This document shows, one piece after another, positions 3,226 through 23,859 of a DNA stretch of 35,741 bases. The DNA comes from a virus. The stretch lies in IMG/VR virus record IMGVR_UViG_3300019487_000065, positions 1 to 35,741 of that record; one strand, written 5' to 3'. Made by a program: the position numbers and the translations under genes. The notes beneath the pieces are model-generated. The model had not been told where the DNA came from. It saw only the letters and a program-made list of their open reading frames with translations, and searched no databases. Numbering within the stretch: position 1 is the first letter of the stretch; the number at the start of each line of letters is the position of its first letter.

Positions 3226-3740
3226 GCATCGTCGCAGGCACCGGCCATCGCCCAGACAAGCTGTGGATCGGCGACTACTCGGGGCACCACAAGCTGAACC
3301 CACTCCGTGCGTGGATCCGTGCCCAGACACGCACCAAGCTCCTGGAGCTGAAACCGATCCACGTGATCAGCGGACTCGCACTCGGCTTCGATCAAGACCT
3401 CGCTGACGTCTGCATCGAGATGGGCATCCCGTACATCGCGGCAGTGCCGTGCGAGGGCCAGGATAGCCAGTGGCCCCCGGAGGCGCGAGCGCACTACCAA
3501 CTGCTGCTCAAGCTCGCGTACGAGGTCGTGATGGTGACGCCGGGGCCGTACGAGCGCTGGAAGATGCAGGCGCGCAACGAATGGATGGTCGATCACTGCA
3601 GCGATCTGCTGTCCTGCTTCGACGGCTCGCAAGGCGGCACGGCAAACACGGTGAACTACGCGAACAAGCTGCGTCGCCCGATCCATCGCATCGATCCGAA
3701 CGAGCTGCGGCGCCTGCTGTCAGCCGGAGCAGCGTCGTGA
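3222..3740 (+). CDS. SLOG-fold protein (DUF1273 / YpsA-like)
   Basis: 172 aa. GTGHRP lies near the N-terminus, followed by ISGLALGFDQ and SQGGTANTV, the pattern of the DUF1273/DUF2493 SLOG family (recognised from memory). Confidence 0.6.
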   Translation: MSIVAGTGHRPDKLWIGDYSGHHKLNPLRAWIRAQTRTKLLELKPIHVISGLALGFDQDLADVCIEMGIPYIAAVPCEGQDSQWPPEARAHYQLLLKLAYEVVMVTPGPYERWKMQARNEWMVDHCSDLLSCFDGSQGGTANTVNYANKLRRPIHRIDPNELRRLLSAGAAS

Positions 3741-4105
3741 GGCCGCACCAGCCTTACCGTGTCGTCGGCGAGCTAGCGAACGGCCAAGGCGTCGTCCTCG
3801 AACCGGGCTGCACGCTCTGCGGCGAAGCGAACGAAGCAATCGCGTGTCCAGTCTGTACACGCGTGTTCTGTGTCGAGCTGTGCTTCGGCGTGCACTTCCA
3901 AGCGCGTGACGTATTCGACGCGCCCGATCGCATCGATGCGTTCCTGCGCACGCAGACAGCGCACGAACTGCTCGATGCAACGATCACCGACGAGAAGGTG
4001 GACTGGCGACACGGCTTGTCGTGCGACAACTGTCGACCTGGTCTACGCGATATGGTCATGCAGGCGCTCGTCACGGGCGCGAAGATCGCGATGGAAGAGC
4101 CGTGA
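3737..4105 (+). CDS. hypothetical Cys-rich zinc-binding protein
   Basis: GTG 3737 gives a GTGA overlap. The longer track ORF from 3470 would overlap the SLOG gene by about 270 nt in an Arg-rich frame. Cysteine cluster CTLC ... CPVC ... C...C. Confidence 0.55.
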   Translation: MRPHQPYRVVGELANGQGVVLEPGCTLCGEANEAIACPVCTRVFCVELCFGVHFQARDVFDAPDRIDAFLRTQTAHELLDATITDEKVDWRHGLSCDNCRPGLRDMVMQALVTGAKIAMEEP

Positions 4106-5465: not shown

Positions 5466-5998
5466 GCTTTGACACCGACGACGATGAAGACGGACCGGTT
5501 CCGGGAACCGGCTACGACGGCACTGATCTCGAAGGCGCGAAGGCGTTCGTACAGACCAACCTGCGTGACGGCGTGACGTGTCCGTGCTGCGGACAGCTCT
5601 GCAAGATCTACAAGCGCAAGCTGAACAGCACGATGGCGCTCGCGCTCGTGCTGATCTACCAGTTCTTCAAGACGCACAAGCACGCCGACTGGCTACACGT
5701 CGCGGCGTTCTTGGTGAAGGTCAAGCACGACAGCTCGATCGCGGGCGGCGACGTCGTTAAGCTCCGCTACTGGGGGCTGCTCGAACGTGCGGCCGGTGAC
5801 CGTCCCGATGGCAGTGATCGCATCGGCCGCTACAAGATCACCGACCTCGGCAAGCGTTTTGTAGAGAAGGCTGCGGCTGTTCCCAAGTACGTGTATCTGT
5901 ACAACCAATTGTTGTTGCGTCTGAGCGAGGAAACGATCACGATCACGGATGCGTTGGGTGACCGCTTCTCTTACACAAAGCTGATGACGGGTGCGTAA
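5462..5998 (+). CDS. hypothetical zinc-knuckle plus probable winged-helix DNA-binding protein
   Basis: GTGA overlap upstream. It has an acidic N-terminus, CPCCGQLC, and then a helical segment ending RIGRYKITDLGKRFV. Confidence 0.6.
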   Translation: MSFDTDDDEDGPVPGTGYDGTDLEGAKAFVQTNLRDGVTCPCCGQLCKIYKRKLNSTMALALVLIYQFFKTHKHADWLHVAAFLVKVKHDSSIAGGDVVKLRYWGLLERAAGDRPDGSDRIGRYKITDLGKRFVEKAAAVPKYVYLYNQLLLRLSEETITITDALGDRFSYTKLMTGA

Positions 5999-6713
5999 AC
6001 GAAAACGAACAACTATCGGTGATACGTTCGGACGTTTGACGGTGATCGGGCGCGCACGACCTGCACCGAGTGGTCAGCCGCGTTGGCGTTGTCGTTGCTC
6101 TTGCAAGACGATCAAGGTCGTTCAGGGCAGCGCTCTGACAAGTGGACACACACAGTCGTGCGGCTGCTTGGGTACTGAACGTCGACGAGAAGCGTCTCGC
6201 ACGCACGGCATGAGCGGCACGCCCGAACATCGAGCTTGGAAGGGCATGTGGGCACGGTGCCTCGCGAAGCCGGGTAGCAAGTACTTTCGCCTGTACCCAA
6301 AGCAGGGCATCAAGGTGTGCGCACGTTGGAAAAAGTTCGAGAACTTCTTCGCTGATGTCGGACCACGTCTGTCGGCACAACATTCACTCGATCGCTGGCC
6401 CGATCCCCACGGTGACTACAAGCCTGGCAACGTGCGCTGGGCGACGATGAAGGAACAGAGTAACAACCGGCGCGACAACCGTATCGTCGAGTTGGACGGC
6501 GAGAAGTTCACACTCAGCGCCCTCGCCGACGCGGCAGGCTTCAAGGTGGGAACGTTACGCTCGCGGCTAGCCAAGATGGGCTGGGACGCACGCAAGGCCG
6601 TAGCAGCGCCCCTGAACGTTACGTCGATTCGATCGTTCACCGACGCGGAGCTGAAACGTCAGCGGACAGCGATCGAAACCGAGATTCAACGCCGACGACG
6701 AGGAAAACAGTAA
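5991..6713 (+). CDS. phage AP2/HNH-associated-type DNA-binding protein (homing-endonuclease-like, no nuclease motif seen)
   Basis: FGRLTVIG ... RCRCSC ... SCGC, then RAWKGMWARC, VCARWKKFENFFADVGPR and SLDRWPDPHGDYKPGNVRWATMKEQSNN. This pattern is common in phage proteins annotated as homing-endonuclease-like. I see no HNH or GIY-YIG catalytic motif. Confidence 0.6.
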   Translation: MRKRKRTTIGDTFGRLTVIGRARPAPSGQPRWRCRCSCKTIKVVQGSALTSGHTQSCGCLGTERRREASRTHGMSGTPEHRAWKGMWARCLAKPGSKYFRLYPKQGIKVCARWKKFENFFADVGPRLSAQHSLDRWPDPHGDYKPGNVRWATMKEQSNNRRDNRIVELDGEKFTLSALADAAGFKVGTLRSRLAKMGWDARKAVAAPLNVTSIRSFTDAELKRQRTAIETEIQRRRRGKQ

Positions 6714-7864
6714 TGACACATGTATCGAAGAAGCTGGCAGACACTGTAGGAAGTGCTATTCGCGGTGACGATACAGCTAAATTTTTTCAAAAACTGGGAA
6801 TGCAAATTCACGGCAATTTGCAAACGTTAACCGGTTCGCGCTCGATCGGTGAATCGACACTGTCGGCAGGGGCGGTAGTGCACATATTGGGATCGGTTGA
6901 TCCGAAATATCGGGGACTGAACTTTCTGCCGCCAGACACGTATCAGGAATACCAGACGCGTTACGTGCACATGCCAGCGCGTTGGACGATGTTCGGATTT
7001 CCCACCTTCCGTGTAACAAAGGATCTTGTAACGTCATTACTGCTCACTGAGTGTCGTGGAATTAGAGGTCGCGATCTGAAGTTTCCATTTCCAACCTTCT
7101 TTGTCGAACTGCCACAAGATCCGGTAATCCTAAAGACGACAGACGTGGCAGGTACTGAAGTTCCTGTGCGCTGGATCAGCGTCCACAACATGCACGTGCC
7201 CGAGAGTGACAAAAACGCGAAGGCACTTGCTGAGATATTTGATGCCGAGACAACAGCGTTCCATGCAGGCCATAGCAACGCGAAACAGTTTCAAACAGCA
7301 ATCGTAGAGACAGAACGCAAATCGTCACTTCGGGGCTACACGGATCTGTGTCTCATGTCGCCGACTGTTGATGTAGATGTCAGCCGCGCGCATCTAGTGC
7401 CCGAAGACGACGAATCTATCGAGGAATGGTTGGAAGGAACGCGCAATACGAGAGCCGAAGAGTTTAAATTACAGCCTACAGACAACAACGCCTTGATGGC
7501 CGCGCATAGATTGATCGCTAACCTCAGTCTGTACTTGGCGAGTAACAAAACTGAATGGACGGTCAACAAATCGCGTAATCGTCTGAAGCACGGCAAAGGT
7601 GGAATTTCCGCACCGTTGGTATGGGATGTTGGAAAAGCGGTAAAGGTTCCTGATCATCTTGTGGCTGCAGCACAGAACTTCGCCGTGCGCGGAACTAACA
7701 AGGCTCAATGGCGTGTATCTTCGCGCTTTGTGGTCCGTGGACACTGGCGCGATCAGGTGTGCGGTCCTGGACGTAGTGACAGGAAACGAATCTGGATCCA
7801 ACCGCATTGGAAGGGTCCAGAAGCTGCAGCGGCTATAACACGTCTATACGAAGTAACGACATGA
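6713..7864 (+). CDS. hypothetical protein in a low-GC patch
   Basis: 383-aa ORF with a TAATG junction upstream. Sampled 60-nt lines give roughly 40-57% G+C against more than 60% in the flanks. C-terminal motif RFVVRGHWRDQVCGPGRSDRKRIWIQPHWKGP. No family recognised. Confidence 0.65.
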   Translation: MTHVSKKLADTVGSAIRGDDTAKFFQKLGMQIHGNLQTLTGSRSIGESTLSAGAVVHILGSVDPKYRGLNFLPPDTYQEYQTRYVHMPARWTMFGFPTFRVTKDLVTSLLLTECRGIRGRDLKFPFPTFFVELPQDPVILKTTDVAGTEVPVRWISVHNMHVPESDKNAKALAEIFDAETTAFHAGHSNAKQFQTAIVETERKSSLRGYTDLCLMSPTVDVDVSRAHLVPEDDESIEEWLEGTRNTRAEEFKLQPTDNNALMAAHRLIANLSLYLASNKTEWTVNKSRNRLKHGKGGISAPLVWDVGKAVKVPDHLVAAAQNFAVRGTNKAQWRVSSRFVVRGHWRDQVCGPGRSDRKRIWIQPHWKGPEAAAAITRLYEVTT

Positions 7865-8097
7865 ACGCGACCCGTCGACGAATTCTGGAGCATCTCGCAC
7901 GTGCGACCGCACGTGTGTACGGACTCGACTTGGTCGCTGCGAAGATCGCGTCGCGGGCTTCATTGTACGTCCATCTGGGATGGCTCGAAGAGACAGGCCA
8001 CGTCGAAGGTGCCGAAGAGCCCGTCACGTTGCGCCGGAGCTACAAGATCACCGACAAGGGCCGTGCTGTGCTCCTGCCCGAGGCGCGCGTGCGATGA
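7861..8097 (+). CDS. small winged-helix transcriptional regulator (PadR/ArsR-like)
   Basis: ATG 7861 forms an ATGA overlap with the upstream stop. 78 aa: RRRILEHLARATARVYGLDLV ... LYVHLGWLEETGHVEG ... YKITDKGRAVL. Confidence 0.6.
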   Translation: MNATRRRILEHLARATARVYGLDLVAAKIASRASLYVHLGWLEETGHVEGAEEPVTLRRSYKITDKGRAVLLPEARVR

Positions 8098-9128: not shown

Positions 9129-9515
9129 CTACTGCGCGTAGTGGCGACGCCAGATCACAGCGCCCGTGGCTACTGCGCCGACGACAAGTACGGTCGACGC
9201 GACTGCCCAGAACTTGTAGTTCTTGTAGAAGGGCAGCTTGAGCGTCGGCGCCGATGTCACGTCGGGACCGTTGTCGATCGGGCGGACCTGATCGAACGCC
9301 GCCGAGATCGCCTTTTGGATACCGTTGCCGTTAGCACCGAGCGCGATGGCACGGAGTCCCACCTCGGAGCGTTCGCCGGCCGTCGGGAGCGAAGCGAACA
9401 ACGCGACCGCGCGTGGGTCGCCGATGGGCTCGAAGCCGATGTAGCCGAACACGAGCCGGGCCTTGGTCTCGATGTCGGCGGCCGAGAGGCCGAGGGCGTA
9501 TCCGTATTGAGGCAT
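9129..9515 (-). CDS. tail-anchored membrane protein (LPFYK..FW-TM-basic tail family)
   Basis: 128-aa ORF with strongly G/C-rich third positions, antisense to its neighbours. C-terminus LKLPFYKNYKFWAVASTVLVVGAVATGAVIWRRHYAQ parallels that of 12667-13224. Confidence 0.65.
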   Translation of the reverse strand: MPQYGYALGLSAADIETKARLVFGYIGFEPIGDPRAVALFASLPTAGERSEVGLRAIALGANGNGIQKAISAAFDQVRPIDNGPDVTSAPTLKLPFYKNYKFWAVASTVLVVGAVATGAVIWRRHYAQ

Positions 9516-9537
9516 GCCCTGACTCTATCACAACGTC

Positions 9538-9553
9538 GATCGCTCGCGCGATC
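9538..9553. promoter_or_regulatory. 16-bp palindromic motif GATCGCTCGCGCGATC, copy 1
   Basis: Exact 16-mer, identical to 13640-13655 and the reverse complement of 17163-17178. It lies in the divergent intergenic region, 22 nt upstream of the ATG of 9129-9515. Confidence 0.7.
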
Positions 9554-9612
9554 ACCCGATCTTCGACGAACTTGATGTCCGAACGCGGGCGCGGTACGAA
9601 AGCGAGACCATT

Positions 9613-9960
9613 ATGAGCAAGCAGGACAAGCAGGACATGTTCGGGATGGGCGATGACGAAGGTGCCGACGAGTACGTCATCATTCAGCTGATCAGCGCCG
9701 AGGGCTGGCGCGCGGTGTTCCAGGACGACAAGGGCCCCCAGCGCGTGCTCGGCCTCGCGTGTTTCGCGCTCGTCGAGATCATCCCAGACAAGCCCGAGGT
9801 CGCGCAGATTCCGCAGCGCGCGATTCGCCCGATGGTCGTCGACGAGTTCGGCGACGTCGAGGACGTCGGCTCGTTTGAGGACTTCATTTGCGTCGTGCAG
9901 CCGGGCATGGACATCCAACCGGTGGTCGCGTACGCGATCAGGAACCGCGAGACGGCGTAA
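9613..9960 (+). CDS. hypothetical acidic protein
   Basis: 115-aa ORF preceded by TTGATG-N17-TACGAA and a 12-nt leader. G/C-rich third positions. Confidence 0.6.
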   Translation: MSKQDKQDMFGMGDDEGADEYVIIQLISAEGWRAVFQDDKGPQRVLGLACFALVEIIPDKPEVAQIPQRAIRPMVVDEFGDVEDVGSFEDFICVVQPGMDIQPVVAYAIRNRETA

Positions 9961-9963
9961 TCG

Positions 9964-10806
9964 ATGGTCCTGCGCGGTCCTAGCCGCCATCTACCCGGAG
10001 TCCCACGCTCCGGGCCCACGAACACGCAGTCGCGGGCGATTCACTCGCTCGAACACATGTCGCTCGGGTGGGCGTGGCACGACGCCAAGAACGCGACGCG
10101 GCTCGCGATCGAGTTGCTGCGCTGGGGCACGCCGCCGACGAAGTGGGTCCAACCGGATGACCCCGCTGTCGCGGAATGGAACGAGCGCATGAACGCCGAG
10201 GAGCCGGTGGGTGGCGATCCCTATCGGACGCTCGGCGACCAGCGCGTGAACGTCGACATGCCCGAGGAGATCGACGCGCGCTTCGAGATCAACAACGTGT
10301 GCGTGTACCTCGGGCAGTTCAGCGACGGCATCGCGATCCAAGCACCGCCGGGTGCTGGTCGTGACGACGAGCATCCGATGACACGGCTCTACTGGTACGC
10401 CGACGTCATGAGCAAACGCATCGGGCAGGCGTGCGAGCGTGCGGCAGTCACCGCGAAGGACGGCGATCTACGCGAGCGTTGGCGCTGGATCGGCCATGCA
10501 GCGAAGGTCGCAACCAAGTTCATCCACAAGATCGCGACCGGCAACCCAGTGATCGGTTCGATCGACGGTGCCGCTGCAGGCATCCTGCGCGACATCGGTG
10601 CTGCGCTCGCGTACAGCGGCAAGCCAACCGACGAGATCGTTGGGCGGATGTTCCACTGGCGCGTGAGAGACGCGCTCAAGGGCAAGGAGCTGTCGCCCGA
10701 GCTGGAAGTGAACCTACGCCCGGCGTTCGAGGCAGCGTGGTCAGCCGGCGAGTACGAGTTCGCCTACTCGCTGCTCGCGGACCTTGATACGATCGCGACG
10801 CTATGA
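9964..10806 (+). CDS. hypothetical protein
   Basis: 280-aa ORF (alternative ATG at 10057). The C-terminus AFEAAWSAGEYEFAYSLLADL carries the helical motif of the CxxC family. ATGA junction with the next gene. Confidence 0.6.
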   Translation: MVLRGPSRHLPGVPRSGPTNTQSRAIHSLEHMSLGWAWHDAKNATRLAIELLRWGTPPTKWVQPDDPAVAEWNERMNAEEPVGGDPYRTLGDQRVNVDMPEEIDARFEINNVCVYLGQFSDGIAIQAPPGAGRDDEHPMTRLYWYADVMSKRIGQACERAAVTAKDGDLRERWRWIGHAAKVATKFIHKIATGNPVIGSIDGAAAGILRDIGAALAYSGKPTDEIVGRMFHWRVRDALKGKELSPELEVNLRPAFEAAWSAGEYEFAYSLLADLDTIATL

Positions 10807-11108
10807 ACGAGAAGCGCTTCCCGGTGATCCGGGGCCAGACGCGGCTACCGCGCGAGGTAGCAGCCACGTGGCCGCGCAGCGTGCCGTGGAGCTTCGTCGA
10901 GAAGTTTCGCGAGCGCGCCGAGGATAACCACAGCCAGACGCTCGAAGTGCTCGCATCGCGCGGCGGGCTCGGACCCGACGAGATGTGGCTCGCGGCGCAC
11001 GACCAGCCGCTGTCGCGCTTCCGTCAGAACGTCGAGCCGCCGAGCGAACAAGCGTGCGGCGAGTGGTTGATTGCCGAGATGCGCAAGCTCGGGGAAGGAC
11101 CGTCATGA
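10803..11108 (+). CDS. hypothetical protein
   Basis: 101-aa ORF with ATGA overlaps on both sides. Confidence 0.6.
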   Translation: MNEKRFPVIRGQTRLPREVAATWPRSVPWSFVEKFRERAEDNHSQTLEVLASRGGLGPDEMWLAAHDQPLSRFRQNVEPPSEQACGEWLIAEMRKLGEGPS

Positions 11109-11374
11109 GTCACGACGACGAGGGAAAGCAGGCGAGCCTCGAACGCATCCGCGAGAGTGGTGTACTGCCGGGGCAGATCTACAAGCACCACGTGACCGGC
11201 GGCGTGTACGTCGTGACGGCCGTCGGCCTGAACGAGCCCGACCTCGAACCGCTCGTGCACTACCGCGCCGCTGAGGACCCGTACGCGATCGTCTGGACGC
11301 GGCAGCTGCACGTGTTCACCGGCAAGGCGCTCGTCGGTGACACACTCGTGCAGCGCTTCGTGCAGATCAGCTAG
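11105..11374 (+). CDS. DUF1653-like protein
   Basis: ATG 11105 forms an ATGA overlap. IYKHHVTGGVYVVTAVG ... PLVHYRAAEDPYAIVWTRQLHVF matches the DUF1653 pattern (YxHYKGxxY ... VVYR ... WVRP..F). Confidence 0.65.
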   Translation: MSHDDEGKQASLERIRESGVLPGQIYKHHVTGGVYVVTAVGLNEPDLEPLVHYRAAEDPYAIVWTRQLHVFTGKALVGDTLVQRFVQIS

Positions 11375-11880
11375 ACGTAGATCGTCGGGCCAGCCCAACG
11401 GCCCTGTGCGTCGTACACGTGCACCTGCACCCAGCTCGTCGCGACCTCGATCGTCTGGTGGCAGCGGTTACAGGTCACTGTACCGTGCGCGTTGGCGGTG
11501 CCGCACTTGTAGCAGTGCGCCGGATCGTCGGGCGGTGGTTGCGCGAGTGCCGTCTCGATAGGCTTGCCACGCAGCCCGCGCGCGAACTGCAGCGCAGCGG
11601 CCTCGGACGGGAACCCAATGGAACGATCCGGATCGGCGTGCTCGTTGCCGAGCAGGTCGCAGACGTGCTTGCCCGTCCACCGGTTGTAGATCGTCCAGAA
11701 CACCGGCACTGGCTTCGGTGGCGGTGTCCACGGACCTTGCATCGCAGCCATGTTGCGCTGCACCTTCGCGAGATCTTCGTCGGACAGCGCGGGACCTGCG
11801 ATGGCCTCGCCTGTTGGCTTGGGACCGGCCATCGATTCGTCGGTGGACCCGAAGATCGTGGCGCCCTGGATGATTCGCAT
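11371..11880 (-). CDS. hypothetical protein with C-terminal zinc ribbon
   Basis: 169-aa ORF with CYKCG ... CNRC. Its stop and the stop of the convergent DUF1653 gene share CTAG. Confidence 0.6.
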   Translation of the reverse strand: MRIIQGATIFGSTDESMAGPKPTGEAIAGPALSDEDLAKVQRNMAAMQGPWTPPPKPVPVFWTIYNRWTGKHVCDLLGNEHADPDRSIGFPSEAAALQFARGLRGKPIETALAQPPPDDPAHCYKCGTANAHGTVTCNRCHQTIEVATSWVQVHVYDAQGRWAGPTIYV

Positions 11881-11889
11881 CCTCGAAGT

Positions 11890-12666
11890 CTAGGCCGTGA
11901 TCGCGGCGATGTCGTTCTCGAACCGTGCGAGGTCGAAGCCATTGGGCGCCTTGCGCGTGTGCGTGATCCACAAATCGTCGATCACGAACCACGCCTCATC
12001 GATGTAGAGATCATCCCAGGCGTACGACATGCTCGTCTTGGCGACCCACGGCATCGTGCTCCACTTGCCGCGTTGGTGTCCGGTGATGATGAACGCGTGA
12101 CCACCTGCCGAGCCTGGGCGCTCATCGGGCGCACGTTGGCCGGGTGGGCTGACATCCCAGTTGAGCCCTTGACGATCGATCGACGCCGGCAAGCTCGCGC
12201 CGATGATCAACGAGCCACATGCATGGAGCGCTGCGCGCATCTCCAGCGTGTCGTTATGGTTCACGCGGCCGAAGCCCCGAATCTTGTACTGGCCGTTGCG
12301 GAACCCGACATTGCGGAGCTGCGTGAGCGCGTTGATGATCTGATCACCGCGATCGGATAGCGAACCGGGGACACCATCCCAGCCGGTGCCGTCTTTGTAG
12401 GCCTTCAAGACGTCGTCGGCGGTCAGCTCGCACTTGATGCCGAGCAGCGCGCAGCGCTGTTGGATGACGTGTCCGTAGCTCGTGCGCGTACAGCACCCAA
12501 CGCGATCGTTGCCGAGGAACGTGTAGTCGGACGTTGGACCTGTCCAGTCATCGATCGGCGGTGGTGCTTGGTAGCCGGGCCCCGTGTTTGCTGCGTAGCG
12601 CGCGAACCATGCGGTCCGCAGGTCGCGCCGCGATGGGGCCGAGCGACCAAACTTGCCGATCTGCAC
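11890..12666 (-). CDS. papain-like cysteine peptidase
   Basis: 258 aa with a GTG start abutting the upstream stop. LGNDRVGCCT (nucleophile region) and GSAGGHAFIITGH (His region) fit C1-like peptidases seen in phages. Confidence 0.65.
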   Translation of the reverse strand: MQIGKFGRSAPSRRDLRTAWFARYAANTGPGYQAPPPIDDWTGPTSDYTFLGNDRVGCCTRTSYGHVIQQRCALLGIKCELTADDVLKAYKDGTGWDGVPGSLSDRGDQIINALTQLRNVGFRNGQYKIRGFGRVNHNDTLEMRAALHACGSLIIGASLPASIDRQGLNWDVSPPGQRAPDERPGSAGGHAFIITGHQRGKWSTMPWVAKTSMSYAWDDLYIDEAWFVIDDLWITHTRKAPNGFDLARFENDIAAITA

Positions 12667-13224
12667 TTATCGTCTCCGTCGAAGGAGCGCGGCGCCCGCG
12701 CCGCCGATCAGCGCAGCGCCGCCGACGGCCGTCCAGAACTGCCACTTCTTGTAGAAAGGCAACGGCTCGACGGTGATCGTAGTCGTCGGCGGCACGGTCG
12801 TACCCGACGCGAGCGCGGTCATGAGTCGTTCGGCAGCGGCACGAATCCCTGGGACGGTTCCCATGTACGCGATCGCCGGGTTGCCCATCGGCAGCTCGTT
12901 GTACTTGTTGATGCGCGCGACGATCGCAGGATCTTGCGAGGGGATGTCGAACGTAGGGAACGCGCCGCCGGCCGCGTTCGCAGCCGCAGTCAGCTCGCGA
13001 ACCATGTCGCTGCCGAGGTAGATGATGTTCGTCCCGCTACCACTGCTGAGGCCGATCGCGCCCGCCGAACCCGACGACTGCACGACGACGAAGGCGTCGT
13101 TCGCAGGTTGAAACCAACCGGCCACGATGCCTTGCAGGTACTTCAGCGCTTCGCTGGGGCTGTTACGTAGCGTCTCGGCGTAGCTATCGTCGCCGAAGCT
13201 CGATGCGCGTGCGAGCGTGAGCAT
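12667..13224 (-). CDS. tail-anchored membrane protein (LPFYK..FW-TM-basic tail family)
   Basis: 185 aa. N-terminus MLTLARASSFGDD. C-terminus VEPLPFYKKWQFWTAVGGAALIGGAGAALLRRRR. The start overlaps the upstream stop by 1 nt. Confidence 0.65.
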   Translation of the reverse strand: MLTLARASSFGDDSYAETLRNSPSEALKYLQGIVAGWFQPANDAFVVVQSSGSAGAIGLSSGSGTNIIYLGSDMVRELTAAANAAGGAFPTFDIPSQDPAIVARINKYNELPMGNPAIAYMGTVPGIRAAAERLMTALASGTTVPPTTTITVEPLPFYKKWQFWTAVGGAALIGGAGAALLRRRR

Positions 13225-13622
13225 TAGATGTCTCCTGCCGAGGTCTTGAACGTTGCGTTGCCGGCTTCTTCACGACGGAAACGTTCGAGCGTGTTGTAGG
13301 CGTTCCAGCTGTCGGCCTGTGGCGGCGGTGCCGAGCGGTTGCCGAGGTAGCCCTGAACGACTTCGGCGAGCGCACAACCGCCGATCGCTTTGCCGGCGTT
13401 CTTGGCGCGCTGGTAGATCGCGGCCCAGTCTGGCATCTGGCCGTGGAGCAGCACTTGAAACTCGGCGACGAGCGACGTGATCTGGTCGCGGTTCTGTGCC
13501 GTGCAATCGACGACGGCATTGACGACGACAGGCACTGGGCCGGGACCCGGACAGCCAACCGGCACGATCATGCCGATGGCGAGGGCGAGGGCGATGAGCA
13601 TGTGCTGGACGGTGAGTTTCAT
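13224..13622 (-). CDS. small secreted or membrane-anchored protein (signal peptide; lipobox not canonical)
   Basis: ATG 13622 gives MKLTVQHMLIALALAIGMIVPVGCPGPGP. The upstream part of the 236-aa track ORF is Arg-rich. The 16-bp palindrome and a TACGCT hexamer lie just upstream. Confidence 0.6.
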   Translation of the reverse strand: MKLTVQHMLIALALAIGMIVPVGCPGPGPVPVVVNAVVDCTAQNRDQITSLVAEFQVLLHGQMPDWAAIYQRAKNAGKAIGGCALAEVVQGYLGNRSAPPPQADSWNAYNTLERFRREEAGNATFKTSAGDI

Positions 13623-13639
13623 GGCGTCCAGCGTATCAC

Positions 13640-13655
13640 GATCGCTCGCGCGATC
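13640..13655. promoter_or_regulatory. 16-bp palindromic motif GATCGCTCGCGCGATC, copy 2
   Basis: Exact repeat of 9538-9553, in the 35-nt gap between 13658-15346 and 13224-13622, 17 nt upstream of the ATG at 13622. Confidence 0.7.
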
Positions 13656-13657
13656 GC

Positions 13658-15346
13658 CTACGAAGCTGGCAGCGGGCTCAGAAGTGGATAGCCAGACTCG
13701 GTGCGGTGCACACCGATGGGCGCGTAGTTCAGGTGCGACTCCAATCCCAGCAGGCGCGCCAACGTGTAGACGATGCTGAGCCACATCTCGGTCCCGCGCA
13801 GCGTCGGTATCGAGCCGCGACTGAACGCGAAGCCCTGGTTGGGCGTCCAGCGAGGCAAGATTGCTTCGAGCTGCGTGCGCGCCCAGCGCTGCACGTCCTC
13901 GCGACGATGTGTGGTCTGCTGGAGACAGAGCCACAGCGGGTGCGCGACATCGAGCACGTTGCAGGCCGTCTCGCGGCCGTGCAGATCAGCGGCGTGCACG
14001 AGAATCGTGTCGAGCGCTTGCACTGGATACGGCACCGGCTTGTCGAACTGCGCGTACGTGCCGCGTGTGAGCCGATAGAAACCGTTCACCGGTTGCAGCC
14101 AGCGATCGGGCTGACGGTGGGCGCCCCACAGCCCTGTCGTGGAATTGCACCGCGTGTCGAGTGCGTGAAACAGCAATTCGAGCTGCGTACCCTGCGCGAA
14201 GTAGCGACGGTTGAAGTAGAGGCAGGACGCGTAGCAATCCACCCACGCGCCTGCGCCCCACGAATAACCGGTCCAATCTAGCGACCCGAGCGTCTTCAGC
14301 AACGTCGCGTCGTCGACTGCTTCGACAGCGTGCACCGGCCATCCGAGATTGGAGCCGAGACATTCGAGCGCGTACTGGACGATCATCGTGTTGTAGAACG
14401 GCTCGCCCGCTGTGGTCTCGCCGGGCTGACCCGCATCAGGCGCTTCGGGAAGGTATTCACCGACGAGGCCAGTGTGTGCGTCCTGCCACGAGCGTAGTCG
14501 CGTGACGAGTGCAGCCTTCGTGTGGTTCGGCGGCGTCGTGTGGAACATCGCTGCGATCTCGATCGCGTCGCACCACGGGCGTACGTACGTGATGCCGTTT
14601 GGCTGATCGACGAAACATGCGTGACCCGACGGCAACGTCGCGGTGCAGCGTGTGAGCACGGCGGGCATCTGTTGACGCGCACGTTCCCCGAAGTCGCGCA
14701 GTGACGCCGCAAGAGGATCGTGTGACGCGCTTGGCTGTACTGGCGACGCGTTGCGCATTCGAATCACCTTGGCCGGATTGCCGCCGACGATCGCGTAGTC
14801 GGGGACGTTCTTCGTGACCACAGCACCGGCTGCGACGATGGTGTGACTGCCGACGTGAATGCCGTCGAGGATGACCGTATTCGATCCAATCCATACATCG
14901 TCGCCCAACGTGATGCCGATCGAGTGCGTGGGCTGTTGGTAGACCGGAATGTCCACGCGCGCGTAGCCATGCTGAAAGCCGATCAAGGACGCGTGCGCGC
15001 CGATTCGAATACCGTGTCCGCCTCGAATTTTGCCGCGCACCGCTGCAAATGGATTGATCGTGCAGTGATCACCCAAAGTCACGTCGTCGGTCACGTACGC
15101 ATTGGCAGCGACGAAACAGCGTTCCCCGAGTTGCAATGATTTGCCGAGGCCGCCGACGATGGCAGCGCGCGGCGAGAGGTAGCAATCCTTGCCCACACGC
15201 ACACCCAGCTCGCGTGCGAGTAGGCGTTGGTGTTCGTGTTGCGCGTGCCGCTCGACAGTGGTGCTGTTCACCCAGTACAGCCACGGACAGAAATCTAGCT
15301 GCTGCTGTCGAAGCGCCGCTTTATCAACATCCGGGTCAGTGCTCAT
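13658..15346 (-). CDS. hexapeptide-repeat (LbH) acetyltransferase fused to a C-terminal alpha/alpha-toroid-like domain
   Basis: ATG 15346 (MSTDPDVDK) avoids a 100-nt overlap with the upstream gene. The LbH region runs from VGKDCYLSPRAAIVGG to IVGGNPAKVIRMR and includes FQHGY. The last ~330 aa have repeated aromatic/Gly motifs (TGLWGAH, NQGFAFS) like prenyltransferase/terpene-cyclase-type toroids. Confidence 0.75.
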   Translation of the reverse strand: MSTDPDVDKAALRQQQLDFCPWLYWVNSTTVERHAQHEHQRLLARELGVRVGKDCYLSPRAAIVGGLGKSLQLGERCFVAANAYVTDDVTLGDHCTINPFAAVRGKIRGGHGIRIGAHASLIGFQHGYARVDIPVYQQPTHSIGITLGDDVWIGSNTVILDGIHVGSHTIVAAGAVVTKNVPDYAIVGGNPAKVIRMRNASPVQPSASHDPLAASLRDFGERARQQMPAVLTRCTATLPSGHACFVDQPNGITYVRPWCDAIEIAAMFHTTPPNHTKAALVTRLRSWQDAHTGLVGEYLPEAPDAGQPGETTAGEPFYNTMIVQYALECLGSNLGWPVHAVEAVDDATLLKTLGSLDWTGYSWGAGAWVDCYASCLYFNRRYFAQGTQLELLFHALDTRCNSTTGLWGAHRQPDRWLQPVNGFYRLTRGTYAQFDKPVPYPVQALDTILVHAADLHGRETACNVLDVAHPLWLCLQQTTHRREDVQRWARTQLEAILPRWTPNQGFAFSRGSIPTLRGTEMWLSIVYTLARLLGLESHLNYAPIGVHRTESGYPLLSPLPAS

Positions 15347-15365
15347 ACTGGACCCGTGTTCGTTG

Positions 15366-16169
15366 TCATCGCGCTCTTCGTCGCCGCAGCGCTGCTTCTG
15401 CTTGGCGCCGTAAGGGGCCTGGGCCCGCCAGACCGGTCGCGTGACGATGATGAAAAAACAGCCCAAGCGCCGTCGTCGCCACCACAGCCGTGACGCCCGC
15501 CGCGATCAACGGGATCTTGTACTTCGAAATGGGCGACGGGGTCGGTGTGATCGTGATCGGTCCGATTTCGAGCCCGAGTTCGAGGGCTTTCAATGCGGAT
15601 GTAGCAACGTTGAGCAGCGTGACGTCGCGTTGCAGCTGCGGATCTGCGAACAGCTTGAGGGTCGTCATCGCTTCGGTACGAACGCTCGCCGGGATGTCAC
15701 GGTTCTTGAGCAGATTGTACAAGCTGACCGCGATGTATCCCTTGACAGTGTCGTTCGGCTCGATGCGACCCGCCGACGCTAACGCTTGTGCAGCAAGTGT
15801 CGGTGACACGGAATCGAACACAGGCTGCTCACCGAGTTTAAGCGCCGCGATCCGCCGAACGTTCACTTCGGTCGGCGAGACGCGCGCACCCATGCCGGTG
15901 TTACGCCAACCGGTGAGAATCGACTGCGCGATGCTGAACAAGAGCGCGTTGTCGACATCTTCAAGGAGCGTTTGCTTCTCGAAGGTCTTGATGCCCTTGG
16001 TGCCGCCGACCTGCTCGTCGCAAGTGACGACGGTGCTCGCGGCATTGTCGTCGTTACCGACGATGGGAAACGAACGGATGCATTGCTCGACGCGCTGCTT
16101 GAGTGCAGTTAGCTCGGACATCGGCGCACCGAGACCGCCGAGTGTGTTTGCGCCGGAGACGACCAGCAT
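15366..16169 (-). CDS. membrane-anchored protein (single C-terminal TM plus Arg-rich tail)
   Basis: 267 aa. N-terminus MLVVSGANTLGGLG. TM helix IPLIAAGVTAVVATTALGLFF followed by a basic tail ending RRRRAR. Confidence 0.65.
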   Translation of the reverse strand: MLVVSGANTLGGLGAPMSELTALKQRVEQCIRSFPIVGNDDNAASTVVTCDEQVGGTKGIKTFEKQTLLEDVDNALLFSIAQSILTGWRNTGMGARVSPTEVNVRRIAALKLGEQPVFDSVSPTLAAQALASAGRIEPNDTVKGYIAVSLYNLLKNRDIPASVRTEAMTTLKLFADPQLQRDVTLLNVATSALKALELGLEIGPITITPTPSPISKYKIPLIAAGVTAVVATTALGLFFHHRHATGLAGPGPLRRQAEAALRRRRAR

Positions 16170-17144
16170 CTAGTACTCCGAGTCGTCGTCGATGTCGTAG
16201 CCGCCGCTGTGTGGACGCTGGCGCGCGTGCGCACGCGGCACGGAGTGCCCGCCGCGATGCTTGCGGTAGATTACGTACCCGACGCCGCCCGCGACCGCGA
16301 GCACGCTGAGCACAGCAACCGTGCTGATCACGACAGGCGAGATCGGCTTGATCGGGGTTGGCCGACCTTCTTTGGCGGCCTTGAGAACGTCCTTCGCAGC
16401 GGCGATGCATTGCAGCCGCACGGTCTGATCGTCCGATGTACCGATGCACATGTCGCGCGTCGACACGAACAGGTCGCGGTCGCTCTGCACCTCTGCGACG
16501 CGCTGCTTGGCCTGCTCGGTGATCGCTTGATTTGCAGCGGCCGTATCGCTCGTCTGGAGAATCTTCGCGACGACGATCACTGCTGTTGCAATGACAGCAA
16601 GGCCGAGCAGGAAGAAGAGCGCGAGCGTCGGGAACGCGCCCAGTTGTCCGGCCGAGAGGTAACCCGCGAAGCCGCTGTTCTGGTAGCCCGAGAGCGACGT
16701 CGTGATCTCTTTGCCGACGATGCCGTACCGAATCTTGATCGTAGACGCTGGAACGCCGGCACCGAACCATGCGCCCAGCCCCGAAGGTGCCGGCAGATCG
16801 AACGTCGGGACCGCGATCGGCTGCGCATTCGGATCGGGCAGGTCGCTGGTGGGCGTCTGTGCGCGTGCCTGCAGCCAAATCTTGGTCGCTTCCATGAAGC
16901 TGCCGACCGCCGCGTTGTAGTTCCTCATCAGCGTGAGCAGCGGCGCCGGAATGTCCTGACCTGCCGTCTGGAGCGTAACGAGGTCGGGCAGCAACTGTGC
17001 GAACGTTGTGCGCAGCTGCGTCTCGGCTTGCGCGAGCGTGAGTCCCTGATTGGTGAGGCGCGGTACCTGCGCTTCTTCAGCGGGCGTAGCCGTAACCTGC
17101 CCGAGCTGCAGACGGCCGAACGAGGACGACGACGCGATGAGCAT
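16170..17144 (-). CDS. two-pass membrane protein
   Basis: 324 aa. N-terminus MLIASSSSFGRLQ. TM1 is FPTLALFFLLGLAVIATAVIVVA. A Cys-containing loop follows, then TM2 VVISTVAVLSVLAVAGGVGYVIY and a basic tail. First gene of the antisense island. Confidence 0.65.
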   Translation of the reverse strand: MLIASSSSFGRLQLGQVTATPAEEAQVPRLTNQGLTLAQAETQLRTTFAQLLPDLVTLQTAGQDIPAPLLTLMRNYNAAVGSFMEATKIWLQARAQTPTSDLPDPNAQPIAVPTFDLPAPSGLGAWFGAGVPASTIKIRYGIVGKEITTSLSGYQNSGFAGYLSAGQLGAFPTLALFFLLGLAVIATAVIVVAKILQTSDTAAANQAITEQAKQRVAEVQSDRDLFVSTRDMCIGTSDDQTVRLQCIAAAKDVLKAAKEGRPTPIKPISPVVISTVAVLSVLAVAGGVGYVIYRKHRGGHSVPRAHARQRPHSGGYDIDDDSEY

Positions 17145-17162
17145 GGGGCCTAGTAAACCATC

Positions 17163-17178
17163 GATCGCGCGAGCGATC
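17163..17178. promoter_or_regulatory. 16-bp palindromic motif, copy 3 (GATCGCGCGAGCGATC, reverse complement of copies 1 and 2)
   Basis: Located in the 59-nt divergent region between 16170-17144 (-) and 17204-17869 (+), 18 nt from the former ATG and 25 nt from the latter. Confidence 0.7.
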
Positions 17179-17203
17179 CAGGGATCGTGTTACGGTTACG
17201 GCC

Positions 17204-17869
17204 ATGCAGACAGCCGCACTTGCCGCGTACATCGTGAGCCGCAAGATGAAGTTCGCGGGCGCACCCATGACGCTCGCGAAGATCCTGAAGATGTGGCAGC
17301 TGCCGCACGACGGTGGTGAAACGATCAACGGCGCGGCGCTCGACGGTGTAGCCCGCTACTGCAAGATGAGCGTCGGCGAGCTGTCCGCAGCGGTCGAGGC
17401 CACGCTGTCGCCGTCCGCGGCGCCGAAGTCGTTGCCGCCCATGCCGCCACCTGCGCCGATCCAGCCTACGACGTTCGCGACGGTGATGATCCCGCCGATC
17501 GCAGCGCCACCGGCACCGTCGGCTGAGCCAGAACCGCAGCCGCCCGCGCCGCAGCCGCCCGCGCCGCAGGCGCCCGAGGAACTGCTCGTGATTGAGACCT
17601 CGAAGCCGGCGCCGGATCCGACGGCCGTTATGCCGCAAGATCAGCTCGGCGATCTGGTCGCTGCATCGCGCAAGTCGAGTCCGGTTATCGAAGCGCCTGT
17701 GGTCGAGGCCGGAGACGACAGCGAGAACGACGCGGACATCGAAGTTTCGTTCGACGAGGTCGAGATGACACCGGCTCCCGAGGTGGCGTTGGTTGCTGCG
17801 CCGGTCGACGCGAAATCGTCAGATGCGAAGTCGACGAAATCGAAGAACAAGCGCAAGAAGAAAAGCTGA
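17204..17869 (+). CDS. hypothetical protein with Pro/Ala-rich low-complexity centre and Lys-rich tail
   Basis: 221 aa with G/C-rich third positions. TACGGT lies 7 nt upstream of the ATG and there is no SD. Contains PAPSAEPEPQPPAPQPPAPQAPEE. Confidence 0.65.
   Translation: MQTAALAAYIVSRKMKFAGAPMTLAKILKMWQLPHDGGETINGAALDGVARYCKMSVGELSAAVEATLSPSAAPKSLPPMPPPAPIQPTTFATVMIPPIAAPPAPSAEPEPQPPAPQPPAPQAPEELLVIETSKPAPDPTAVMPQDQLGDLVAASRKSSPVIEAPVVEAGDDSENDADIEVSFDEVEMTPAPEVALVAAPVDAKSSDAKSTKSKNKRKKKS
17534..17575 (+). repeat. 15-nt tandem repeat ccgcagccgcccgcg, 2 exact units plus a 12-nt partial
   Basis: 17534-17548 and 17549-17563 are identical. 17564-17575 is ccgcaggcgccc. The repeat encodes PQPPA-PQPPA-PQAP inside the CDS. 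Confidence 0.85.
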
Positions 17870-19463: not shown

Positions 19464-19872
19464 ACGGCGTATAAACCCTTGATCTCTCGTCCGAGCGCTC
19501 GAATGTAGGCGCGCCTACGTTCTGGAGTGCTACCAGCGTCCAGGTAGTTACTGACGCACTTGGTAGCTTACGCTACCAAACCAGTTGCTTTCTCCGGCCT
19601 AGTTCCAGGCTAGTGCGCATCAATTTTCTATCTAAATATATAAATAATCTATTCATACTCTCTTGGAACTAGGGGGAAGAATCCCTGATGGTATGTTCGG
19701 GAGATCTTTCGTGGTTCATTGGCTATACCAATTCGATTGACCGGAGATCGGCCCAGCTACACCGCTTAAACAACCTGGAACTTGGATCCGATCGACATCC
19801 AATCACGTACGATCTGACCGTGATCGTGCACGATCGTTGACGCATACACGCAAATCCGATACGACCTGGAGA
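19464..19872. promoter_or_regulatory. 409-nt non-coding hub with AT-rich core, palindromes and repeated TGGAACT elements
   Basis: This is the largest gap in the window. It contains a 14-bp palindrome (19505-19518) and an 8-bp-stem hairpin (19560-19579). Inverted 12-mers (19598-19609 and 19662-19673) flank the very AT-rich segment 19610-19661. A third copy of the element lies at 19774-19782 and a second 14-bp palindrome at 19822-19835. Confidence 0.7.
19837..19865 (+). promoter_or_regulatory. candidate promoter TTGACG-N17-TACGAC for the RHH-AP2 gene (near-leaderless)
   Basis: The -35 is at 19837-19842 and the -10 at 19860-19865, with ATG 7 nt after the -10. The palindrome GATCGTGCACGATC ends one nt upstream of the -35. 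Confidence 0.45.
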
Positions 19873-20523
19873 ATGTCGAAGCGGCCGTGGAAGGAGTCTA
19901 AGCTGGTAATTTCGTTACCGGATGACATCCTTGCGGAGTACGTCGACGAAGCGACGCAGCTATATACGTCGAAACAGGATCTTATACGTCAGATCTTGAT
20001 CGACCGTAAGCGCCGTCCGCAGCTGGACGTTGAAGCACCTACAGCACCACAGAGTGCCCGTTCAACGCGAAGCGGTTTCAAAGGCGTCTACGCGTACGGC
20101 AAGCGCTGGGAAGCTGTTGCGTACGTCAACCGCCGACGTACCCGCCTGGGGGTCTTCGACACGCCAGAGGGTGCTGCACGTGCCTATGACCTACACGTGA
20201 TCAGTAACGCAGGCGGTGACCCAAACGCGGCCGTCAACTTTCCCGGACCGGCCGACATCGCTGCGCAGACGAATGCGCCGTACATTGAGCAGTTCGCGAG
20301 CGGTGGACGACTCAGCGATCTCGATTGGCAGCGGTGGCAGCAACAGGCACCGGCCGCTGCCGCAGTCGATGCGCCGTTGAGTGTCCGTCCCGAGGGAGCC
20401 GGACCGCCGATCGATGCGACGACGCCACTGATCGATCGACCCGCGAAGTCACTCTACCGGCGGGAGCCGACACCGACACCGCGTCCGGATCCCGAGCCCG
20501 ACGACGACGAGAACCTGTCGTGA
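19873..20523 (+). CDS. ribbon-helix-helix plus AP2-domain DNA-binding protein
   Basis: ATG 19873. KLVISLPDDILAEYVDEATQLYTSKQDLIRQILID is CopG/Arc-like RHH. SGFKGVYAYGKRWEAVAYVNRRRTRLGVFDTPEGAARAYD ... AVNFP is an AP2/ERF-type domain. The tail is Pro-rich. Confidence 0.7.
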   Translation: MSKRPWKESKLVISLPDDILAEYVDEATQLYTSKQDLIRQILIDRKRRPQLDVEAPTAPQSARSTRSGFKGVYAYGKRWEAVAYVNRRRTRLGVFDTPEGAARAYDLHVISNAGGDPNAAVNFPGPADIAAQTNAPYIEQFASGGRLSDLDWQRWQQQAPAAAAVDAPLSVRPEGAGPPIDATTPLIDRPAKSLYRREPTPTPRPDPEPDDDENLS

Positions 20524-21998: not shown

Positions 21999-22340
21999 CT
22001 ACGCCGCGCGAACTTCAAGAATCGACATCGAGACGCCGATGCTCTTGCCAGCGATGATGAGCTGCTGCACGCCGTCGTTGCTCTCGAATTTTGCCGTGAG
22101 TTGGGCGCGGCCAATGCCACCAGGCACGACGACGGCTGTGAGCTTGCCGGTCAATGCTGCCCACGCTTCGGGTGTCGATGCCTTCTCGAACACGTGCTTG
22201 AACCCGACCAGCTTGAGCGTGTCGCAGTCGGCCATCAACTCCTCGCGCGTGCGTGCAGTAAGCACGTTACCAGCTTCGGAACAGAAGCAATCGTAGGTGA
22301 GCAGCTTTGGATTTCGCTTCAGTGTCAACGCGGCGGGCAT
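21999..22340 (-). CDS. hypothetical protein
   Basis: 113-aa ORF with G/C-rich third positions. No domain recognised. Confidence 0.55.
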   Translation of the reverse strand: MPAALTLKRNPKLLTYDCFCSEAGNVLTARTREELMADCDTLKLVGFKHVFEKASTPEAWAALTGKLTAVVVPGGIGRAQLTAKFESNDGVQQLIIAGKSIGVSMSILEVRAA

Positions 22341-22378
22341 GCGAGCAGTCTACCATCAGATCGCGCACGCGATCGTCA

Positions 22379-22879
22379 TCACGAAATCGACTCGCGGTAG
22401 CAACGGTCGCAGTTGCCGGCGCCGTCAAGCGGGAACCAGCACACCGAGCAATGCGGGACGTCGGGCTTCGTGCGCCAACCCTCTGGCAGACCGTTCGCTT
22501 TCACAGTGCAGTATTCGCCGTGCGGTTCGCCCTTGGGCTGCTTGCAGTGCACGCAGAACAATAGCGGCGGCGGGTCTGTGAACTGTGATGGGCCGACGGG
22601 TTCAGGTAGACCAACGGGCTCGGGGACTATCGGCGCACGTGATCCGAGTGTCGCCTGGATGCTGTCGCCCGCCGGAATGTGCCCGCACACGTAGCCGACT
22701 TTGTTTTTCAGGTAGTCGATCGTGATGCGTGCCCAGCCGAGTAGCTGCGGAACGTCCGAGATTCGGATCGAATCGCGTCCGTTCTTGATCGGACAGATCC
22801 CACAGCAGAACTCGCCTTGGTCATCGATGTACCGGGCTGTATTGCCGCACGTGCACTTCAGCTCGACGTTGAGGTTCAT
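22379..22879 (-). CDS. Cys-rich multi-zinc-ribbon protein
   Basis: ATG 22879 (MNLNVELKCTCG) overlaps the upstream small ORF stop (ATGA). RYIDDQGEFCCGIC matches RYIDADGEFCCMRC of 8735-9127. It also has CVHC ... C and CSVC ... CDRC. Confidence 0.6.
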   Translation of the reverse strand: MNLNVELKCTCGNTARYIDDQGEFCCGICPIKNGRDSIRISDVPQLLGWARITIDYLKNKVGYVCGHIPAGDSIQATLGSRAPIVPEPVGLPEPVGPSQFTDPPPLLFCVHCKQPKGEPHGEYCTVKANGLPEGWRTKPDVPHCSVCWFPLDGAGNCDRCYRESIS

Positions 22880-22998
22880 GAGATTGCGTGATGCAGCCAC
22901 ACGCACACGATGATCGCAAGAATGATCATCGTGAGCCACCACGGGAACATGAACCCCACGCCGATCTCGAAATCCAAATCGCTATCGTCGTCGGTCAT
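22876..22998 (-). CDS. 40-aa single-TM peptide (below the ORF-track size cutoff)
   Basis: My own translation is MTDDDSDLDFEIGVGFMFPWWLTMIILAIIVCVWLHHAIS. ATGA overlaps at both ends link it to 22995-23252 and 22379-22879. Confidence 0.45.
   Translation of the reverse strand: MTDDDSDLDFEIGVGFMFPWWLTMIILAIIVCVWLHHAIS

Positions 22999-23785: not shown

Positions 23786-23859
<74 letters not shown>

Follow-up and report, generated by a model that had tools for sequence, protein, structure and literature searches.

The analysis of a 35,741-nt stretch of viral DNA (IMG/VR record IMGVR_UViG_3300019487_000065, positions 1 to 35,741; hereafter the window) revealed a short palindrome, GATCGC-N4-GCGATC, which recurs in the intergenic DNA of the window and of related phages next to promoter-like sequences. 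This palindrome is a genuine and conserved regulatory DNA site, present far above chance expectation. Its consensus is (C)GATCGC-N4-GCGATC(G), 16-18 bp in length, the extended form being the 18-bp dyad CGATCGC-N4-GCGATCG. Judging from its symmetry and its placement, the palindrome is probably the operator of one dimeric protein, which would repress transcription by occlusion, with looping possible where sites are paired.

Occurrence of the palindrome in the window

An exact search of the window located copies of GATCGCTCGCGCGATC at 9538-9553 (+), 13640-13655 (+) and 17163-17178 (-), in agreement with an earlier reading of the same DNA, referred to below as the original prediction. When up to two mismatches were allowed, 13 matches to GATCGCTCGCGCGATC were found against 0.28 expected from shuffled sequences, and none of the shuffles reached 13. 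With the four central bases left free, seven exact GATCGC-N4-GCGATC sites are present in the window, beginning at 9538, 13640, 17163, 21699, 22359, 29887 and 34390. The two half-sites counted separately occur 57 and 67 times per 35.7-kb window, so that about 0.1 chance pairs in this arrangement would be expected per window.

Five of the seven sites (9538, 13640, 17163, 22359 and 34390) are intergenic, in a window with a non-coding share of 8.5% as estimated from a rough codon-usage gene map; a binomial estimate for this distribution is about 8e-5. The original prediction had proposed a mismatch-tolerant search and a check for intergenic enrichment, and both the excess over shuffles and the location of the sites bear it out. 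A fourth promoter copy, at 22359, had been overlooked.

The two remaining sites (21699 and 29887) lie within genes. The site at 21699 encodes the peptide I-A-D-A-I (ATC GCT GAT GCG ATC), and conservation of this peptide in two relatives explains that copy by coding. As an explanation of the palindrome in general, codon usage was rejected: only 13 of 82 sites in the window and its relatives (see below) fall in coding DNA, although 83% of these sequences is coding. Avoidance or enrichment of a restriction site was also considered and rejected. GATC is present 380 times in 35.7 kb (observed/expected 0.99) and is thus neither avoided nor enriched, and CGATCG likewise occurs at the expected frequency in the window.

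Distribution of the palindrome in related phages

Near and distant searches detected no DNA-level match of the window to GenBank phages. Only the protein encoded by 32149-34086 matched a deposited phage, Virus Rctr197k (KX853510.1), with 55% identity. The genome of the latter (197 kb, 63% G+C) comes from a methane-oxidising enrichment culture and contains one exact site; with its similar G+C content and a single site in 197 kb it serves as a useful negative control.

A scan of IMG/VR for the exact 16-mer returned 112 loci, most of them single in-gene matches in unrelated contigs. Multiple copies are carried by at least five IMG/VR contigs of 65-221 kb, and the motif also recurs in some 20 further contigs from metagenomes. 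Contig C, the closest relative, shows synteny over most of the window, with 73-75% amino-acid identity; locus searches with single proteins returned this relative only, or nothing. In another relative (contig A, 196 kb) 24 unique exact sites were found in the 74 kb sampled. Taken together, the window and its relatives (258 kb) contain 82 exact GATCGC-N4-GCGATC sites, a number that is inflated for the relatives because their loci were fetched through the motif. Intergenic DNA accounts for 69 of the 82 sites (84%), the non-coding share being 17%. The spacer is GCGA in 40 of them, GCAC in 13, GTGA in seven and GCGC in four.

An independent sample was provided by seven contigs (L240-L246) obtained through homologues of the protein encoded by 17204-17869. 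Five of these homologue-fetched contigs were analyzed; they contain 12 exact sites in 25 kb, and a site is located directly upstream of the orthologue in all five. A metagenome scan for the motif together with NTGNTANNNT identified 18 loci on 16 contigs. The pattern is thus confirmed by three independent samples, namely the window, the homologue-fetched contigs and the combined scan.

By these searches the motif is specific to this phage clade. A scan of 185,579 bacterial genomes, one per species, gave only scattered single hits to the 18-mer form of the dyad (CGATCGCGCGAGCGATCG) in many phyla among the matches listed, and because these hits were single at each locus they point neither to a regulon in a host nor to the host itself. 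The motif strings gave no match in a literature search.

Association with predicted leaderless promoters

The four promoter copies in the window sit on five predicted extended -10 promoters (TGnTAnnnT) without a recognisable -35 element. They share one layout, in which the motif is followed by a variable 4-12 nt, TGn and TAnnnT, a further 6-7 nt and the start codon, and no Shine-Dalgarno sequence is present.

Copy 1 (9538-9553, GATCGCTCGCGCGATC) occupies the divergent gap between 9129-9515 (-) and 9613-9960 (+). The predicted -10 hexamer TAGAGT (9522-9527, -) follows TGa and is located 10 nt past the copy and 6 nt before the ATG of 9129-9515. Copy 2 (13640-13655) has the stop codon of 13658-15466 (-) on one side and the start of 13224-13622 (-) on the other; here the predicted -10 is TACGCT (13630-13635, -), again after TGa, 4 nt past the copy and 7 nt before the 13224-13622 ATG. 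Copy 3 (17163-17178) is common to the divergent genes 16170-17144 (-) and 17204-17869 (+). On the side of 17204-17869 the predicted -10 TACGGT (17191-17196, +), after TGt, is 12 nt past the copy and 7 nt before the ATG. On the opposite side a weaker -10-like hexamer, TTTACT (17152-17157, -), follows TGg at a distance of 5 nt from the copy and 7 nt from the ATG of 16170-17144; it is without the usual A at position 2, and its assignment as the -10 of that gene is tentative. Copy 4 (22359-22374; GATCGCGTGCGCGATC, which reads GATCGCGCACGCGATC) is situated downstream of the stop codon of 22379-22906 (-) and upstream of the start of 21999-22340 (-), with the predicted -10 TAGACT (22347-22352, -) after TGg, 6 nt past the copy and 6 nt before the 21999-22340 ATG. 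The sites at 9538, 13640 and 17163 are thus 22, 17 and 25/18 nt away from start codons and 10, 4 and 12 nt away from a TAnnnT hexamer, within the 17-25 nt and 4-12 nt originally predicted. The variant copy GATCGCGTCAGCGATC (34390-34405) is located in a 406-nt gap upstream of 32149-34086 (-). No -10 was found adjoining it, and its function is uncertain.

Transcripts from the motif-linked promoters of the window are predicted to start at the ATG, i.e. to be leaderless. Extended -10 promoters that yield leaderless messenger RNA (mRNA) are a layout best known from Actinobacteria. The motif would then occupy about -17 to -40 and so precede the predicted transcription start. Copies had originally been assigned to leader regions; this description is no longer appropriate, as the predicted leaderless transcripts begin downstream of the motif, which places it outside the mRNA leader.

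Promoter-like sequences of a second type are found in the window without the motif. In these, 17 nt separate (c)TTGACT/TTGACA from TAnnnT, and the leader that comes next has a Shine-Dalgarno sequence; they are located at ~28660-28688 (-) upstream of 28319-28639, at 24458-24486 (-), at ~34190-34225 (-) and at ~21985 (-). Their presence suggests at least two transcription classes in the phage.

Position of the sites relative to promoters across the family

To define the spacing, 128 outward-facing flanks of 64 unique intergenic sites from the window and relatives were surveyed. A TAnnnT hexamer starts at an offset of 4 nt in 16 flanks and of 5 nt in 13, against 0.33 expected per offset, and most of these hexamers are accompanied by TGn. 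A second cluster of offsets at 9-12 nt is about half a helical turn away from the main class, and the overall range is 1-18 nt. Simple rules placed 42 of the 64 sites no more than 18 nt upstream of an extended -10/leaderless signature and six downstream of a canonical TTGACA-N17/18-TAnnnT promoter; 16 remained unclassified. Four of the six downstream sites begin 10-11 nt past the -10 (about +4 to +20) and two begin 40-41 nt past it (about +34 to +50). Two promoters are bracketed by pairs of sites, 63 and 72 bp apart, and there are two tandem pairs 19 bp apart. The predicted RNA polymerase footprint (about -55 to +20) is overlapped by the 42 sites of the upstream class and by the four at about +4 to +20.

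The motif is not an obligatory part of the promoter, since 19 of 50 leaderless-type gene starts lack it within 80 nt, even though the way the sample was collected favours the motif. This bears on whether the palindrome could be a core promoter element, that is, a substitute for the -35 recognised by a phage-encoded or alternative sigma factor. The fixed spacing to the -10 in about half of the copies would be in line with such a role, but the motif is symmetric and used in both orientations, and its distal half-site is only about 14 bp away from the -10. Spacing that varies over 1-18 nt also contrasts with the fixed 16-19 bp of -35 elements. In addition, some copies are downstream of the -10, many similar promoters (the same 19 of 50) are without the motif, and the -10 itself is of the ordinary housekeeping TAnnnT type. 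We consider a role as a -35 substitute very improbable.

A 5' untranslated region is conserved after one class of motif-linked promoter outside the window. It comprises GGTAGCTTTGGG..CACCTC, a hairpin (ctcactcggat..cccgagt) and a strong Shine-Dalgarno sequence, and is found upstream of a ~130-aa protein at L007 ~9405-9480, L008 ~1800-1886 and L035 ~2508-2590. It probably marks a highly expressed gene.

Symmetry and conservation of the half-sites

In alignments of orthologous gaps the half-sites were the sole invariant block; the spacer changes or flips (GCGA, TCGC, TCAC; GTGC versus ATCT) and the flanks drift. The sites orthologous to copy 2 in relatives C, A and B have the spacers GCGA, TCGC and TCAC, flipped or changed, with unchanged half-sites. 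The orthologue of copy 1 is retained in relative A despite diverged flanks, and that of copy 4 in the same relative differs in the spacer. A site equivalent to copy 3 is present upstream of every orthologue of the 17204 family examined (relatives C, A and B, and loci L240-L244). The flanking base is G in 86 of the 128 flanks, which extends the dyad to CGATCGC...GCGATCG, and the centres of the half-sites are about one helical turn apart. No meaningful polarity was seen: where only one side of a site has a promoter, GCGA reads towards the gene in 11 cases and away from it in 10. Intergenic DNA contains 92 perfect 6-N4-6 palindromes. The arm is GATCGC in 63 of them, and because no other arm recurs more than twice, there is no compensatory variation in the arms. 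These properties point to a DNA site read by a symmetric protein rather than to an RNA structure, a -35 element or a terminator.

The original prediction had offered a GNRA-capped RNA hairpin as an alternative. Such an element, with a stem of 6-8 bp, might terminate transcripts, stabilise them or direct their processing. RNA folding of the palindrome gives -9 to -13.6 kcal/mol, and the spacers GCGA, GTGA and GCAA are GNRA loops, whereas GCAC and GCGC are not. Predicted 5' untranslated regions include a few copies, and a stop codon precedes two of those in the window; on the other hand, two of the four promoter copies in the window and many of those in relatives are between divergent genes, where no transcript should enter. 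Neither compensatory changes in the stem nor a T-run after it could be seen, orientation is random (11 versus 10) and orthologous sites flip the loop. Copies in divergent gaps, the absent T-run and random orientation led us to reject the RNA alternative, which we regard as highly improbable; with the motif lying upstream of the predicted transcription start and the stem showing no covariation, the GNRA hairpin originally suggested is not retained.

Two further candidates were also rejected. An intrinsic terminator disagrees with the lack of a T-run, the lack of strand preference and the many copies between divergent starts. A mobile repeat resembling a miniature inverted-repeat transposable element disagrees with the flanks, which are not conserved beyond the -10.

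Repression as the probable mode of action

The probable mode of action is as follows. A sequence-specific dimeric DNA-binding protein would bind the 18-bp dyad, and the bound dimer would cover about -17 to -40, where RNA polymerase must sit, so that initiation would be blocked. As the operator is shared by dispersed promoters at operon starts, one protein could silence them jointly, and at 17163 it would block two divergent promoters simultaneously. This protein would be a phage product or, with lower probability, one of the host. The original prediction had chiefly proposed that a dimeric regulator has its operator over the spacer/-35 region, and this proposal gains support from the invariance of the half-sites, the lack of orientation bias and the coupling to the -10. 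Copies downstream of canonical promoters or bracketing them likewise favour it.

That the site would act negatively we infer from its use in either orientation, from its varied positions (-17 to -40, +4 to +20, further downstream, bracketing) and from its absence from similar promoters, which together give it the look of a repressor operator. Neither a core promoter element nor an activator that has to contact polymerase from a fixed face would readily account for such varied placement. Furthermore, paralogues of one tail-anchored protein family are driven both by extended -10 promoters with an upstream site and by canonical promoters with a downstream site, an indication that control has the same sign at both.

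Several points weigh against this interpretation. Promoters and transcription starts are sequence predictions throughout. About half of the sites share the 4-5 nt spacing to the -10, which could mean that they are a working part of the promoter, e.g. an activator site. The GCGA centre (40 of 82 sites) is far commoner than a neutral spacer should be and is left unexplained by a model of two half-sites. Most family loci were obtained via the motif itself, and counts outside the window and L240-L246 are therefore biased upwards. Finally, Pfam and PHROGs searches with about 60 proteins of the window and relatives assigned almost no functions and revealed no clear regulator.

Because the preferred spacing and the preference for GCGA are not explained by repression, an activator site or a two-way switch stays alive as an alternative. 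The dimer would in this case make up for the absent -35 contact, and canonical promoters with the motif downstream might simultaneously be shut off by it. Activation at promoters without a -35 is known for T4 MotA and Mu Mor/C, and dual switches for phi29 p4 and lambda CI. The promoters concerned indeed have no recognisable -35, the distance between motif and -10 is 4-5 nt in half of them, and every leaderless-type signature in the window has the motif; the existence of the motif-free TTGACT/TTGACA class makes two temporal classes plausible. However, the centre of the motif at about -25 is the position of the polymerase itself and not the usual activator position of -41 or -61, and extended -10 promoters generally need no -35 contact. 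Offsets of 1-18 nt, including a second cluster half a helical turn away, the 19 of 50 similar promoters without the motif and the use of both layouts by paralogues of the same gene family also disagree with activation. Overall, an activator or two-way switch appears unlikely, although it deserves more weight than the other alternatives considered here.

Each site contains two GATC sequences, and with the flanks these become CGATCG. The palindrome could for this reason be considered a methylation-responsive site, at which marking of GATC by a phage Dam-like methylase would determine binding of the regulator or promoter strength. Unmethylated, hemimethylated and fully methylated DNA would then differ in expression, which would thereby be coupled to replication or to DNA entry. 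GATC is not avoided in the window, and homologues of Dam/DpnM-like N6-adenine methylases with 27-29% identity to the dpnM product of Rctr197k (annotated at 11518-12438) are encoded in relatives C (C:81491-91395, ~3002-3784) and D (D:11704-28295, ~13994-14776). Against this, GATC is so common (380 in 35.7 kb) that alone it carries little information, Rctr197k has the methylase without the motif, and the GATC specificity of the methylases is only presumed. Methylation would moreover be an addition to the operator model and not a replacement for it. A timer gated by methylation, in which binding of the regulator (possibly the product of 17204-17869) would depend on the methylation of incoming versus replicated DNA, is an improbable elaboration, as is the methylation-responsive site in general. 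If true, such a timer would determine when a large family of leaderless, tail-anchored envelope proteins is expressed in this uncultured group of large phages.

Candidates for the binding protein

Under repression by a dimeric protein, the product of 17204-17869 (+) may be the regulator or simply the most constant target, and it is a weak candidate. The protein combines a helical domain of 70 residues at its N-terminus with a long Pro/Ala-rich disordered linker, an acidic segment and a Lys-rich tail. An AlphaFold2 model based on a 10-sequence alignment gave a block-mean predicted local distance difference test score (pLDDT) of ~79-91 over residues 1-70; the single-sequence model was poor (pLDDT 63). 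The nearest folds to the N-terminal domain in the PDB (Foldseek) were the XRE-type helix-turn-helix regulators EspR, ClgR and SinR, all non-significant (E >= 0.25), and the Foldseek matches in BFVD were non-significant as well. No Pfam hit was obtained for the product, a profile search of PDB sequences was empty, and a word-indexed protein search with the N-terminal domain found no homologue.

Two further products have features of DNA-binding proteins. The PadR-like winged helix-turn-helix protein encoded by 7861-8097 is below the Pfam threshold, and the closest relative, which retains the motif, has no match to it in the syntenic stretch. The product of 19873-20523 combines an N-terminal ribbon-helix-helix pattern, recognised by eye, with an AP2 domain below the Pfam threshold, and homologues are present in two relatives. 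The palindrome itself supplies an exact 18-bp bait with which the regulator could be captured by DNA-affinity methods or DNA affinity purification sequencing.

Genes adjacent to the sites

Membrane segments are predicted in 34 of 66 site-adjacent genes against 49 of 277, and a single C-terminal anchor in 18 of 66 against 20 of 277 (Fisher p = 2e-5). Two of the five genes adjacent to sites in the window (17204-17869 and 21999-22340) have no predicted membrane segment. The small regulon of membrane-protein genes originally envisaged therefore survives as a tendency towards membrane proteins; the set is neither small, with 24 sites in 74 kb of contig A, nor restricted to membrane proteins. Association with the motif is kept for the orthologues of 16170-17144, 13224-13622, 17204-17869, 21999-22340 and 9129-9515 across two to four phages. 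In many of the adjacent proteins the N-terminus is of the form ML..Q.NG..GFGQ, and the C-terminus has a hydrophobic stretch with an Arg/Lys tail after it.

A large paralogous set with a C-terminal hydrophobic anchor and an Arg/Lys-rich tail is represented in the window by 9129-9515, 12667-13224, 16170-17144 and 25166-25741, and in relatives by L001, L002, L028, L037, L095 and others. The juxtamembrane sequence F/W-K-K-x-x-F-W-A-A-x-GGG is often present, as is the N-terminus ML..Q.NG..GFGQ, and some members have peptidoglycan-binding-like segments. These genes mostly have leaderless-type promoters and their products no signal peptide. The three-part C-terminus recalls PEP-CTERM or LPXTG sorting signals.

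The motif marks operon starts and would define a co-regulated set rich in tail-anchored membrane proteins. It thereby offers a handle on regulation in a large, uncultured, high-G+C phage clade whose genes are almost all of unknown function. A compact leaderless extended -10 promoter with an abutting operator could also be reused as a tight switch in hosts that employ such promoters.

Other features of the window

A non-coding stretch of 409 nt (19464-19872) contains a strongly A+T-rich island, tcaattttctatctaaatatataaataatctattcatac, especially at 19620-19665, in a genome of 62% G+C. Several short palindromes are present in it, including GATCGTGCACGATC at 19822-19835. This stretch could be a replication origin or a regulatory region upstream of the gene for the ribbon-helix-helix/AP2 protein.

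The block 5991-8097, with a G+C content of 52-57%, comprises an HNH endonuclease gene (5991-6713), an open reading frame for a 383-aa product (6713-7864) and the gene for the PadR-like protein (7861-8097). It looks like an inserted mobile cassette, because no match is present at the syntenic position of contig C.

Two transfer RNA (tRNA) genes are located in an 829-nt gap, at 23786-23859 and 23956-24027 (-). ARAGORN recognised one of them, tRNA-Met(CAT), and Rfam both. An almost complete tRNA set is present in Rctr197k. The annotation of the latter (KX853510.1) also includes two arrays of clustered regularly interspaced short palindromic repeats, at 110803-112317 and 119281-119535, beside transposase-like genes.

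Comparison with known systems

The actinobacterial LexA SOS box, TCGAAC-N4-GTTCGA, is bound by a dimeric repressor and typically overlaps promoters. The palindrome described here has the same 6-N4-6 dyad layout and differs in the half-site sequence. Streptomyces phage phiC31 reportedly has conserved inverted repeats of ~17 bp in many intergenic copies, which are bound by the phage repressor. The likeness lies in a multi-copy intergenic inverted repeat. The sequence is different, however. Phage phiC31 is temperate, with a genome of 41 kb, and its repressor gene is known, whereas the relatives found here are of 65-221 kb and no integrase or repressor was recognised in the window. In addition, the sites described here are locked to predicted leaderless extended -10 promoters.

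In Cluster A mycobacteriophages (L5 gp71 and relatives), operators and stoperators resemble our sites in that more than 20 of them are dispersed over promoters and short intergenic gaps (PMC9283540). In these phages one regulator silences many transcription units together (PMC9283540). Cluster A sites are, however, 13-bp, asymmetric, bound by a monomer and functional in only one orientation relative to transcription (PMC9283540), whereas the present site is a dyad, with GCGA towards the gene in 11 cases and away in 10, and is mostly located upstream of the predicted transcription start. Identity with a stoperator was rejected on account of this symmetry and lack of orientation preference.

The closest analogue is the 17-bp dyad TGTTCGG-N3-CCGAACA of Cluster O mycobacteriophages, of which 34 copies are present in Corndog (PMC4351075). 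In both repeats the inverted arms are constant and the centre varies, with one sequence favoured there, and neither has a meaningful orientation. Both occur in many copies per phage genome and are absent from other phages, and for both a dimeric regulator has been proposed. The sequences are unrelated, and the arrangement is 7-N3-7 in Cluster O and 6/7-N4-6/7 here. In Corndog about one third of the copies are in genes and four are near predicted promoters, and a transcriptional role was thought unlikely by the authors (PMC4351075). Here, by comparison, 84% of the sites are intergenic and two thirds are directly on promoter-like sequences. No current idea on phage regulation is overturned by these data; the palindrome is a familiar kind of multi-copy phage control element, with a new sequence and in a new, poorly known clade of large phages.

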